Shown here: positions 59,376-62,961 of the stretch, piece after piece
Numbering within the stretch: the first letter of the stretch is position 1
Layout: every line of letters starts with the position of its first letter
Assembly (NCBI GenBank): GCA_963833225.1
Contig: CAWHXD010000006.1
Span: 310,846 to 374,845 of the forward strand
Length of the DNA stretch: 64,000 nucleotides
From: an uncultured Chloroflexia bacterium
GTDB lineage: Bacteria; Chloroflexota; Limnocylindria; Limnocylindrales; CSP1-4
Reading direction: 5' to 3'
Position numbers and translations under genes: made by a program
Notes under the pieces: generated by a model
What the model was told of the DNA's origin: nothing
Seen by the model: only the letters and a program-made list of their open reading frames with translations
Database searches by the model: none

Positions 59376-59452
59376 CGGGGCGTGGCGCAGCTTGGTAGCG
59401 CGCATCGTTCGGGACGATGAGGTCGGAGGTTCAAATCCTCTCGCCCCGACCA
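59376..59452 (+). tRNA. tRNA-Pro (CGG)
   Basis: CGGGGCG/CGCCCCG acceptor, D loop AGCTTGGTA, anticodon arm CATCG-TTCGGGA-CGATG, T loop TTCAAAT, CCA. Confidence 0.96.
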
Positions 59453-59463
59453 TTTCGACCTCA

Positions 59464-60942
59464 TCAGGTCCAAAGGCCTCTGCGAGGCCGTGGTCGAGCG
59501 CCTCCTGCGTCGGTTCGAGCTTCGCCACGCTGACCCCGAGCACGCGCGATGCGCTCGAACAGCGTCGTCGCCAGGGCCCGCCGATCCTCCGGGTCCGCAT
59601 CGGCCCACCACGCCGGGAGGTTCTCCAGGTAGCGGCGGATCTCGTCGGGTGGCAGCGTCGGCCGCTCCGCACCGCCCGCGGCCTCCGCCTCCGCGGCGTC
59701 GAGCTCGCGCATCGTCTGCTCGAGGACCAGGGGATCGCGATCGCGCCGGTACGTCGCGAGCGCGCGTTCGCGCTCCTCCTCGATCCGGGCCAGGCGCAGC
59801 TGGTTGGTCTCTGTCCCAGCTCCACGTGTATAGGCACCAGCGGCGGCCTCGACGTCGCGCGCGCCCAGGCGGACCCGCTCCAGCACGAACGGCACGATCG
59901 CCTCGTACTCGTCGCGCCCGTAGCTCTGGCCCGGGATCCGCACATGACGCCCGCGGACCGCGCCGCCAGCTGGTCGGGCCGCCGTGAAGGCCTCGCAGGC
60001 ATCGAGGTGGCGGTAGCGGTCCTTGTCGCCCACGAGCCGGCGGCCGCAGGCGGCGCACTCCAGCATCGGCAGGGCATAGGTCCGGCGCGTCTCGGGCCGC
60101 CCGGGCGAGCGGCGGTTGCGGGCGGCCCGCAGGTCCGCCACCCGGCGCCAGGTCTCCTCGTCCACGACCGGGTCCCAGTTCGCGGCCGTTCCGTCCCGCA
60201 GCCGGCCCCGATACAGCGGCGAGGTGAGGATGCCGCGGATCGTGTGGAGGCCGATCCCGAGGCGTCCCGCCACCTCGCGGTCGGTCAGCCCGGCGGCGGC
60301 CAGCGCGTAGGCACGGACGGCCGTCCCGATGCGCTCGGGATCGATCTCGATGACCCTGGCGTCGCCTGCCCGACGGAAGCCGAATGGTGGATGGCCGCCC
60401 GGGTCGCCGTGCGTCTCGCGCTTGGCGGCATAGCCCGCCCGGACGTTGCGGCTCTGCTCGCGCGAGTTGATCTCGGCCGCCTTGCACTTGTCGACGAAGC
60501 GCTCCCAGTCGGCAGGGTTGGAGGAGAGGATCCGGTCGTCGCAGATGTACACGACCACACCCTGGCGGTGGAACCAGCGCCGGTACGAGAGCGCGAGGGC
60601 GAGGTCGCGCATGTAGCGCGCGGTGTAGCCGACGAGGAGGACATCGAACGCGCCCGCCTCGGCCGCGGCGAGCATGGCCCGGAACTCGGGCGTCCGGGTC
60701 GCGGGCGGATCATCCATCGAGTCGGGGCCCGACCAGCCTGAGCGCCCGACCGTCCAGGCGAGCCCGGTGTCGGCGAGCCCGAGCGCGGTGATCGCGGTGT
60801 CCTGCATCCGGCGCTGCGAGGGCGGTCCCCAGCGATCGAGCTGGCCCGGTGTGCTCTCGCGGATCCAGCGTGCCGCCCGGAGGCCGCGCAACTCCGAGGC
60901 ATCGCGCGCGAGGCGCAGGTCGGCGGCGTGGAGTGCGCTCAC
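59464..60942 (-). CDS. Large serine recombinase (resolvase + recombinase + Zn ribbon + coiled coil); probable frameshift near 59547
   Basis: WIRESTPGQ catalytic Ser motif, [43 protein letters not shown]. Confidence 0.9.
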
Positions 60943-61238
60943 CGGGCCGGGGTGCCGGTGCGGCGGCGGACGCGGGTGCGGGTGCGGGACGGGGTTCGGG
61001 GGTCTGGCATCGGTCGTACGGTCATGCGGGCAGGTCGGCGGACGCGCATCGTACCCCGTCGTGGCCCAGCCTTCGTGCGCCGCTCGGCGATGTGGCGGAG
61101 CCCCTCGGCGAGGACGAAGACGAGCCGGCAGGTTCCGGGATCGTCGCCGTGCTGCGACCCCTCGAGCGTCTGGGTCTCGAGCGCCGAGGCCGCGCCGGAC
61201 CGTGTCCGGCGCCGGGCGGTACCGTGTCGCACCGTCAC
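60939..61238 (-). CDS. Small basic protein coupled to both neighbours
   Basis: GTGA overlaps with the Replic_Relax stop (61235-61238) and with the recombinase start (60939-60942). Confidence 0.5.
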   Translation of the reverse strand: MTVRHGTARRRTRSGAASALETQTLEGSQHGDDPGTCRLVFVLAEGLRHIAERRTKAGPRRGTMRVRRPARMTVRPMPDPRTPSRTRTRVRRRTGTPAR

Positions 61239-62128
61239 GCGAGCGCCTCGTTATGGAGCTCGAGCCCACCCTCACCGAGGAGGCGGAGCCAGGCGTCGGT
61301 GCCGACAGGCGTCGGACAGCGCCGGGGCTGCGGGTCGGCCAGGAGGGCCCGCAGCACCGATCGCTTGCGCTCGGCCGTGAGGCCGAGGATCTGCGCGTCG
61401 TAGCCTTGGGTCCGCAGATCGGGCAGCAGGACGACCCAGGCCTTGCCCGAGAGCCCGGGCCGCGCGATCCGGCGCCCGATGGCCGCGAGGCGCGCCGCCC
61501 GCTCGGGCGAGCCCGTTACGAACAGGACGCACCAGGTCCTCGACCACAGCGCCTTCTCATACCGCGTGAGCTTGTCCTCGATGACCGGACCATGCTCGGT
61601 CGCCTCGTCGATCTCGAGGCACAGGATGGTCGAGCCGGTCGACCCTGCCACGGCGAGGATCCCGTCGGGGTAGACGCCGCGGAGGGTGTCGTGGCACATC
61701 GACTCGGTGAGCCAGGCGGTCAGGACCGGACCCGGGTCGGGCTCGCCCTGCTGGGCCGCGAGCAGGGCGCACACGGTCTCGACCCCGTTGAGGCTGTGGC
61801 GGAGCTGGGTCCCGGCCCGGCCGCGGGTGAGCGGGCCGTAGTGGAGGCGGCGGCGCCCGCGGGGACTGATCCGGAAGGCGAACGGGGCACCGCCGCGGGT
61901 GACCGGGGGCAGGACGGCCCGTTCGAGGTAGCCCGCGCGGTAGAGGCGGGCGAGGCGTTCCTGCGCCGTCTGGCGGCGGTGGTAGACGAGGGTGGTCAGC
62001 TGGGTGGTCGTGGCGACGTCGGCGCGGTACAGGATGCGCAGGGCTGCGCGGTCGCGGTAGGTGAGCAGACCCGGGTCCACGATGGCCCGGGAGGGAGGCG
62101 CCGGCGCGGCAGCGAAGGCACCGATCAT
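61235..62128 (-). CDS. Replication-relaxation (Replic_Relax) family protein; start uncertain, ORF is open to 62290
   Basis: wHTH LTYRDRAAL..TTTQL..RLARL, LRHSL, YPDG, LEIDEATE, KLTRY. Confidence 0.82.
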   Translation of the reverse strand: MIGAFAAAPAPPSRAIVDPGLLTYRDRAALRILYRADVATTTQLTTLVYHRRQTAQERLARLYRAGYLERAVLPPVTRGGAPFAFRISPRGRRRLHYGPLTRGRAGTQLRHSLNGVETVCALLAAQQGEPDPGPVLTAWLTESMCHDTLRGVYPDGILAVAGSTGSTILCLEIDEATEHGPVIEDKLTRYEKALWSRTWCVLFVTGSPERAARLAAIGRRIARPGLSGKAWVVLLPDLRTQGYDAQILGLTAERKRSVLRALLADPQPRRCPTPVGTDAWLRLLGEGGLELHNEALA

Positions 62129-62961
62129 GGGTATGTGGGGTCCCTGGTCGGCGGCCGTCCCGATCGAGCACGAAACCCCGTGCACCGAAGGCGTGCCCGG
62201 AACACGGGCCGCTGCCCCCATCCCTGCCGGACGGGAGGCGTCGGAGCGACCGGTGTGGCTGGCGTTGCTGGTGCTGACGAGGGTGATCATGTCGTGGGCG
62301 ACCTCATAGAAGGACTGTGCGTACCTCGATTTCGACGGAGCTGGCCGCGTTCAAAGGTCCTGCGATCGGGTTGACCCCGCAGGTGCTCGCGCATGGGAGC
62401 TCCCACCTGGCCGACACCGGTCCGCCTGACCAGCCGCTGCGCAGGCGTCAGGCCGCTCGTCACGCGGGACCGTCTCCGGCCGCCGGGGCGTCACCCCTGG
62501 CGCGGTCGCGATGGGTGGCGACTCTACGGGACGAGGTGCGCCACCGGGACGGGTACCCGCGGACAACCGACGCGACGTCAGCCGCCGAGCTCCAACCGTA
62601 CGACGGCGTCCGCCTCGGCTCAAGGGGGGCTTGTGTACCGGCGTGCGTCACGAGGTTCGACCTGCAGAGTTGGCAGCCGGTCCTGAGGAGCGGCACGGAT
62701 CTGGACCTCGCGGTTCGCAGCGCCGCCGATCGATCGGGTCCTGCTCACTGGCGGCCAGTCGGGTGATACCGTGATCGCTCGAACGCCTTCCTCGCGCAGC
62801 GCGGCGACGCGTCCCGCGCGGCCGCCGGCGCCGAGATGAGCCTGACGAGTGCCCTCGTGGCCGGCACGTCGACCGTGGAGGCTGTTGACGCGGCATCAGA
62901 GACTCTGCACGAGGACGACCGCCAGCAGGACGACGCCGAGTTCGCCTCGAACCCGGGGTCA

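Follow-up and report, generated by a model that had tools for sequence, protein, structure and literature searches.

A large serine recombinase module at tRNA-Pro(CGG) that probably heads a tandem array of integrative units in an uncultured Limnocylindria bacterium

The window considered here, a 64,000-nucleotide stretch of DNA from an uncultured soil bacterium of the class Limnocylindria (Chloroflexota), carries a compact gene triad that reads into the 3′ end of a tRNA-Pro(CGG) gene and encodes a Replic_Relax protein, the product of a small open reading frame (ORF) and a large serine recombinase (SR). We read this triad, together with about 0.5 kb of conserved upstream DNA, as the integration/mobilisation module of a small integrative element that sits at tRNA-Pro and heads a tandem array, and we give this reading a probability of roughly 0.8. 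It is built on the anatomy of the triad, the family-wide linkage of SR, attachment (att) core and tRNA, the symmetry of the site and its variable occupancy among species, all of them directly observed. The window is C6:310846-374845 of G000, a high-GC metagenome-assembled genome (MAG) of Chloroflexota rather than actinomycete origin, with a completeness of 86%; its end is the contig end, with the far end of the element out of view. The tandem core array is carried by a second G000 contig, C7, on which array coordinates are given.

We posit that the SR has its attP site within the final codons of the SR gene itself and would recombine it with the 3′ end of tRNA-Pro(CGG), that the crossover would fall at the CC that starts the 3′ strand of the T-stem, and that the element would supply a new copy of the last 14 nt, leaving the tRNA intact. 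The small protein would bind the C-terminal helical region of the SR and probably set the direction or the activity of recombination, in the manner of a recombination directionality factor. The Replic_Relax protein, with its predicted winged-helix and nuclease-like parts and its MobC class, would probably nick the excised circle at the conserved upstream site, and nicking would serve rolling-circle replication or mobilisation. Through repeated insertion and decay, at least 13 further units would have accumulated as a stack behind the tRNA.

The target, tRNA-Pro(CGG), lies at 59376..59452 on the plus strand (ARAGORN; Rfam RF00005, 63.3 bits) and together with the SR gene end forms attL in the integrated state. 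The triad lies on the minus strand: the SR gene, 492 aa as assembled, at 59464..60942 (Pfam Resolvase PF00239, E 7e-8); the small ORF, 99 aa as called and without a Pfam family, at 60939..61238; and the Replic_Relax ORF, 351 aa as assembled, at 61235..62290 (PF13814, 68.7 bits versus a cut-off of 25.3). At the family-typical length of 297 aa the last of these, a candidate relaxase or replication initiator, occupies 61235..62128. GTGA stands at both junctions, between SR and small ORF and between small ORF and Replic_Relax, and third-position GC backs all three frames. The initial annotation had described three co-oriented, GTGA-linked genes pointing into the tRNA 3′ end, which ARAGORN, Rfam, Pfam and the junction sequence bear out, and had seen no phage or conjugation genes, which holds within 59376-62290, where none were found.

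Recombinase, attachment core and crossover

The enzyme is a large serine recombinase, with a resolvase domain followed by a recombinase domain, zinc ribbon and coiled coil. R28, E29, S30, Q34, C296, C299 and C316 are invariant in an alignment of 16 sequences (A1), and S30, to judge from the YxRxSTxxQ motif, is presumably the nucleophile. PF07508 is weak in the window SR (E 0.025) and reaches 1.9e-6 to 6.4e-4 in relatives. The structure model, with a predicted local distance difference test score (pLDDT) of 64.5, retrieves by Foldseek the full-length PhiC31, Bxb1 and SPbeta-type integrases over 511-589 columns (E 4e-10 to 7e-9), and the matches overall (PhiC31, Bxb1 and LI integrases) span E 4e-10 to 1e-4; by sequence, no solved structure was matched by the SR alone and only 3g13 by the SR profile. 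The tyrosine recombinase family PF00589 has no match on C6 or C7, so that the earlier call of a serine rather than a tyrosine recombinase at this tRNA stands. In the textbook picture, serine integrases insert inside protein genes and leave 2-bp repeats, and tRNA targets are the province of tyrosine integrases; mycobacterial surveys likewise link tRNA sites to tyrosine integrases. A literature search with subscription journals outside its coverage found neither a serine recombinase at a tRNA gene proper nor mobile elements of Limnocylindria, and within that literature a true tRNA target for a serine recombinase is unusual in print.

The att core, CCTCTCGCCCCGACCA, comprises 16 nt at 59437..59452 on the plus strand and covers the 3′ strand of the T-stem, the 3′ strand of the acceptor stem and the terminal ACCA. 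Across a family survey of 78 loci, drawn from one genome per species, the core recurs exactly, 95-119 nt past residue 465, in 67 of the 76 SR copies that retain the C-terminal part, two loci ending too early to tell. Bona fide tRNA-Pro(CGG) adjoins 28 of these 67 core-bearing copies. Elsewhere in the family, tRNA-Arg(CCG) adjoins two SR copies of a 34%-identical clade, and four further, partial and distant SR matches keep the same spacing from tRNA-Arg(TCT) or tRNA-Arg(CCG). A distant clade with 34-40% SR identity (L102, L103, L107, L109, L111, L112 and L144) lies at the same distance from tRNA-Arg(TCT) or tRNA-Arg(CCG), and members of the SR family therefore seem to have switched from one tRNA gene to another as their target.

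Gene and target are interleaved: the last 16 nt of the tRNA fall within the conserved 3′ end of the SR gene, and the core, translated in reverse complement, yields MVGARG or, from a different frame, GRGER, which are the conserved C-terminal motifs of the family. The site is also symmetric. When attP was rebuilt by a script that joined far-end arm, core and SR-end arm for the 14 units with both ends, the dyad centre fell at core offset 0, on the first CC, in 13 units, where 11-15 of 22 positions pair; in the shuffle control the dyad score was reached in 0 to 161 of 500 per site. A set of viral contigs from IMG/VR (29 loci with the same SR family) needs no joining at 15 loci that have the core inside the contig, one of which, L122, is a tRNA attL rather than an attP, and 11 of the 15 again have their dyad centre at CC; just beyond the site, two of those contigs carry terminase, portal, protease or Mu-F genes. 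The outer inverted repeats vary with the SR subfamily, being TCGAAAT...ATTTCGA in the type found in the window and ACTCGTAA...TTACGAGT or ACCCGTATA...TATACGGGT in others, which is the pattern expected of co-evolving half-sites. Identity between sites starts at the CC and extends to the CCA of the tRNA, as would be expected if strand exchange takes place at the CC and the 14 nt needed to restore the tRNA have to come from the element. The crossover dinucleotide is probably the CC at 59437-59438. The far-end arm is characteristic as well: CATCGAAATCGTCGTCGCGACT, hereafter the class-S arm, marks five of the six units with the SR type of the window copy (SR-A) and is present at C7:22765, 42524 and 47142.

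The small protein, the Rep slot and the upstream region

A member of the small-ORF family, which was assembled by single linkage, lies directly upstream of 43 of the 60 full-length SR copies, one of them doubtful. Its members share a helix, C.L.FVLAEGLRHIAERR in the clade of the window and DPLv.ALAQLVRDRy elsewhere, which is followed by a basic tail and spans residues ~35-55 (window ~61074-61136). The predicted complex of small protein and SR scores a median of 0.61 versus 0.00 for the best control; in the calibration of the predictor, 116 of 157 solved complexes attained this mark, as did 2 of 215 mismatched pairs. Its runs share at least 56% of contacts, with a partner pLDDT of at least 60, and the predicted interface joins helix residues 35-55 to SR residues 363-375 and 427-461. 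The models thus support binding of the small protein to the SR. By analogy with the position of the excisionase in modules of integrative mobilisable elements (IMEs; PMC5357655) and of xis in pSAM2 (PMC2440964), the small protein would be a candidate cofactor of recombination directionality or activity.

PF13814 corresponds to the MobC relaxase class of CONJscan, according to PMC5357655. The Replic_Relax model (pLDDT 73.9; predicted template modelling score 0.77) combines an N-terminal winged helix with an alpha/beta C-terminal domain, D155, E172, D174 and K186 are invariant among homologues, and Pfam adds a MarR_2 match (E 0.002). A fold search with this protein gave no match at E <= 0.001, and its comparison by sequence with solved structures gave nothing meaningful. 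The slot upstream of small ORF and SR holds Replic_Relax in L037, L038, L040 and L110, and in other relatives RepSA (L094), REP_ORF2-G2P/RepSA (L051) or Rep_trans (L054, where the genes likewise have 4-nt overlaps). This interchange with rolling-circle initiators suggests, by analogy, that replication or transfer of the circle, once excised, starts from a nick made by Replic_Relax.

The DNA upstream of Replic_Relax (62129..62655, minus strand) is above 90% conserved in four copies (alignment A3) and lacks a coding signal in the plot of GC at third codon positions; a 57-nt piece at 62296-62352 is kept at 82-89% (blastn) in loci where the protein is only 58-66% identical. From its conservation the region is a candidate cis site, be it an operator, an origin of replication (ori) or an origin of transfer (oriT). 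A tblastx search with it was uninformative, and an RNA was considered and rejected (no Rfam match; fold z-score 0.08).

The array, its occupancy and alternative explanations

A duplicate of the tRNA 3′ end, which the initial annotation had proposed to seek, is present many times over: G000 contains 14 exact, same-strand copies of the core, 13 of them further copies within the first 62 kb of C7, at 9017, 22765, 25427, 31137, 33401, 35988, 38844, 42524, 44086, 46025, 47142, 54302 and 61949. These 13 cores (C7:9017-61949, loci L001-L004) bound 12 units of 1.1-13.7 kb, whose cargo includes toxin-antitoxin pairs, Fic, two AAA_14-DUF4143 ATPases, a STAND-LuxR regulator, insertion sequence (IS) elements and a chromate transporter, among others. 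An SR gene or a remnant of one directly adjoins five of the 14 cores. C7:9047-11871 holds a second triad, its SR 95% and its Replic_Relax 92% identical to those of the window and both frameshifted, and remnants of a 41%-identical SR (n=3) adjoin the cores at C7:25427, 35988 and 46025. The unit of this second triad (C7:9017-22765) and those of L037-L040 possess an integrase and a relaxase or Rep gene and are bounded by att at both ends; L037, L038, L039 and L040 measure 6.5-11 kb, and Pfam finds no phage-structural or conjugation genes in these complete units. Among related units, L077:1414-7917 and L110:1586-6775 carry RHS-repeat/DUF6531 proteins of 1729-2167 aa as cargo, and L081:3350-4426 a Shedu SduA defence gene.

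The end of C6 and the start of C7 have no sequence overlap. Their adjacency is suggested by G001, in which one contig runs from tRNA-Pro through the SR and a 43 kb island to a terminal core and a nitroreductase gene, the latter 86% identical to the orthologue that follows the last core on C7. On this comparison the end of C6 and the start of C7 would form one island of at least 66 kb. Beyond the window triad comes the contig end, and the arm at the next core is foreign: over the 32 nt shown, the left arm of C7:9017 has the same sequence as the P arm of the phage-type contig L132. The stretch from the window triad to C7:9017 therefore appears to be a chimera to which two units contributed, and the IS debris at 62656-64000 fits this. 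The idea of a stand-alone minimal element thus gives way to that of the first, probably defective unit of a much larger tandem array. Two stretches of a further contig, C14:682-3674 and C14:12981-13976, hold ~90%-identical paralogues of the C7 start and a related serine recombinase fragment, and the start of C14 may be a further island piece or a second site.

Occupancy varies widely among relatives. Of 70 genus genomes, 60 contain the core, with copy numbers that range from 0 to 26, and none contains the reversed-pattern control; in G063, a single contig, eight cores lie in 34 kb ending at the tRNA. Any SR match is confined to 28 of 61 relatives, an SR at least 81% identical to that of the window to 4 of 60, and none of the 24 genomes of a sister genus with small genomes has an SR match. 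The TerC-tRNA locus of G018 and G034 holds SR-less cassettes in an order that differs from that in G000, so that the triad, surveyed in relatives as the initial annotation had suggested, is not fixed. In G000 the Fic cassette is flanked by the PIN and ATPase cassettes, in G014 it follows PIN, and in G034 it is missing with precise borders. A candidate empty site is that of G002, whose only core lies at an intact tRNA and whose genome has no SR match (contig of 6.9 kb; tblastx to G000 is noise). G000 and G014 share 91.5% identity across 3.3 kb of triad DNA and 69-85% in the flanking genes. The element may be active at the present day.

The patchwork of units invites a different account of the same locus. 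It is possible, though we consider it doubtful, that the tRNA-Pro locus is an integron-like capture array run by large serine recombinases, with SR-less cassettes moved in trans. Were this so, SRs from phages or small Rep elements would move cassettes between any exact 16-nt cores, the helper would set direction, and the enzymes would accept attP-like × attL-like pairs that canonical integrases refuse. A stricter form, in which the array is a resident platform whose host-domesticated SRs shuffle SR-less cassettes in trans and are not self-mobile, is unlikely. It would account for the many SR-less units of one or two genes (Fic, 1.56 kb; AAA_14-DUF4143, 1.94 kb; toxin-antitoxin pairs), for 13 relic cores that are all exact despite differing flanks, for the precise absence of the Fic cassette between the same neighbour cassettes in G034 and for a unit order that differs between G000 and G001. 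Against it, the SR is neither fixed in position nor universal, as the 28 of 61 genomes with any match attest, SR copies decay inside arrays, the triad is more similar between species than the chromosome is, and phages use the same SR family; the SR-less units also fit decayed or cis-mobilisable elements, comparable to ssrA islands (PMC3146451) and to the cis-mobilisable elements of PMC5704250. Identity with a true integron (IntI with attI/attC) was rejected: there is no tyrosine recombinase on C6 or C7, and the junctions are serine-type sites.

That the triad is merely the edge of a conventional prophage, with the SR as phage integrase and Replic_Relax and the small ORF as early phage genes, is quite improbable. 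Genuine phage genomes do use SR relatives at 45-52% identity as their integrases, and attP is placed alike in them; remains of phage genes occur close by, namely a Sipho_Gp37 fragment at C7:12345-12527 and, within C7:1-9017, HNH and amidase/LysM genes; and G001 has a single 43-kb unit from the tRNA to the terminal core. However, SR-A units between two cores (L037-L040) span only 6.5-11 kb and lack structural genes by Pfam, none of the 29 viral-contig loci gave a tblastn match to the window Replic_Relax, and the left arm of C7:9017, being the P arm of a different, phage-type element (L132), assigns the phage debris to a neighbouring unit. The prophage edge, which the initial annotation had named as an outcome that would overturn its proposal, is disfavoured by these observations. 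An incidental tRNA, with the repeats as decayed tRNA copies or chance matches, can be dismissed as very improbable: 7 of the 13 left flanks do look like the tRNA, starting at its anticodon loop, but C7:1-74000 contains no tRNA by ARAGORN, the reversed-pattern control is empty, and the flanks are element arms that show dyad symmetry and co-vary with SR subfamily.

The reading that we favour, a small integrative element at tRNA-Pro whose module heads the array, has several observations weighing against it. To our knowledge, canonical serine integrases recombine only attP with attB, and tandem stacking would thus require a laxer enzyme. The putative attB, composed of the tRNA arm and the flank of the last core, has a weak symmetry of 8/22 at the proposed centre. 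Neither an excised circle nor an empty site was seen directly, and two metagenome scans for the SR-A attP gave 0 matches. The sole contiguous run of class-S arm, core and SR-A gene end in 70 genus genomes (G092:C23:324118-324155, L147) has one mismatch and lies inside a chromosome contig, where it represents a tandem junction of two window-type elements and not a circle. The coupling protein PF12696 has no match in the genome (86% complete), and FtsK PF01580 has a single strong match on contig C8 and a weak second one on C19, neither in the island. Foldseek matches of Replic_Relax are weak only (MarR-type, FokI and SdaI; E 0.007-0.04). The window copy is without its own far-end arm, and its two 1-nt indels may be real decay or assembly errors.

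Known systems and the state of the window copy

The closest precedent comes from the same phylum. Dehalococcoides carries tandem genomic islands behind ssrA, with the CcrB-family serine recombinase DsiB at attL, and the authors regard these islands as integrative mobilisable elements (McMurdie et al. 2011, PMC3146451). As in the Limnocylindria element, an SR gene of about 500 aa at attL reads toward the target, the att repeat overlaps the SR 3′ end, a tRNA-like gene receives the insertion at its T-loop/3′ end, and tandem islands downstream, some without an integration module, are marked by repeats of the target 3′ end (PMC3146451). The systems differ in target (ssrA versus tRNA-Pro(CGG)), in repeat (20 nt versus 16 nt) and in module, which is DsiB-DsiA-RecF-ParB-Mom there and Replic_Relax or a rolling-circle Rep, a small helper and an SR here, with no second serine recombinase. 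Pfam scans of our units found no partners of the DsiA-RecF-ParB-Mom type. Further differences are the host class, Limnocylindria, and the fact that phages, too, employ the SR family; we liken the two systems by layout, not by homology of SR and DsiB.

SCCmec and ACME islands, moved by CcrAB, also rely on large serine recombinases, insert at the 3′ end of a conserved gene, have direct repeats and form tandem stacks that include recombinase-less units. Their target is the protein gene rlmH (orfX), two recombinases serve them and their hosts are Firmicutes, which sets them apart from the Limnocylindria element. That system is discussed in PMC3146451. Tycheposons of Prochlorococcus, according to 10.1101/2020.12.28.424599, are likewise cargo elements with replication genes at tRNAs, stacked behind partial-tRNA repeats, and 27 of 937 carry a large serine recombinase; they differ in being overwhelmingly tyrosine-recombinase elements of another phylum with different modules. 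Streptococcal IME_Class_8 resembles our triad in its compact PF13814/MobC relaxase, a small gene in the excisionase position and a serine integrase, and differs in possessing a VirD4 coupling protein, none having been found in the genome here, which is 86% complete (Coluzzi et al. 2017, PMC5357655). Serine-integrase IMEs insert within genes with very short repeats, and accretion with cis-mobilisable elements has been described (PMC5704250). The target here is the 3′ end of a tRNA, which is restored, rather than an intragenic site.

Relatives with RepSA in the Rep slot, and one unit with a NUDIX gene, add a likeness to pSAM2, which inserts in a tRNA-Pro gene. The pSAM2-type integrative and conjugative elements of actinomycetes (AICEs) share the operon order rep-xis-int and work with a tyrosine integrase together with an FtsK-like Tra (te Poele et al. 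2008, PMC2440964). The Limnocylindria element differs in its serine recombinase, and neither a Tra gene nor PF01580 was found in element or array.

The kind of system is thus one already described at ssrA in the same phylum. From the minimal, possibly mobilisable integrative element class proposed in the initial annotation, the integrase-proximal module of a small integrative element survives and the new class does not, since the layout of streptococcal IME_Class_8 (PMC5357655) and the Dehalococcoides ssrA islands (PMC3146451) are already known. New are the tRNA-Pro target with its probable CC crossover, the module of Rep or relaxase, helper and SR with its conserved helper, and an SR family common to phages and small elements in Limnocylindria. 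The mechanism of the ssrA islands would be extended to true tRNA genes in another class of Chloroflexota: in an abundant, uncultured lineage of soil and freshwater, one SR family that serves both phages and Rep-bearing elements of 6-11 kb targets one tRNA gene and restores it, giving rise to stacks that reach two dozen sites in a genome. Natural, co-varying pairs of recombinase and att arm around a fixed core, along with a helper of 50-100 aa, could aid studies of site choice and directionality.

The window copy itself is probably a defective, tRNA-proximal unit of the array. Its SR residues 1-465 are family-typical, and the tail is frameshifted by one extra nt near 59547 that alignment does not find in four relatives. 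Sequencing runs were compared through Logan contigs of relatives only, the best run containing 0.17 of the sampled words; the extra nt is missing from every covering contig in three of the four, and the sole covering depth (3) in the fourth (X5) does not show the deletion. Intact SR homologues extend ~38 residues beyond residue 465, several then reading the antisense of the tRNA, and the same tail is found in P0002, P0014, P0017 and P0020. In the window these conserved last ~38 residues sit in another frame that continues through the tRNA (59376..59546, minus strand, frame-2 translation). At the other end of the triad, Replic_Relax homologues are nearly all 296-299 aa long and align with 100% of a query beginning at MIGAF (window 62128), for which reason we shortened the gene model to that start; the 54 N-terminal residues of the 351-aa ORF (62129-62290) are joined to it by a 1-nt indel near 62145-62152. 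Within a span of 3 kb, two 1-nt insertions set the window copy apart from all relatives; should these be assembly errors, they counsel caution over frameshifts elsewhere in the MAG.

Contigs of relatives no longer cover the window after about 62651, and debris of IS fragments and a trypsin-like fragment truncates the copy from 62656 to the contig end at 64000. An IS481/IS3-like transposase, split into two frames, occupies 62992-63999 on the minus strand, with rve_3 on that strand and a helix-turn-helix part at 63621-63998 among the IS fragments (Pfam), and the trypsin-like fragment (TAGHC motif) lies between the transposase frames at 63330-63640 on the plus strand. Near-identical IS pieces recur at C7:16003-16146 and C7:20312-20455 (blastn). 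The window contains a second proline tRNA gene, tRNA-Pro(TGG) at 21199-21273, which is without the 16-nt core, as C6 has no extra copy of it.

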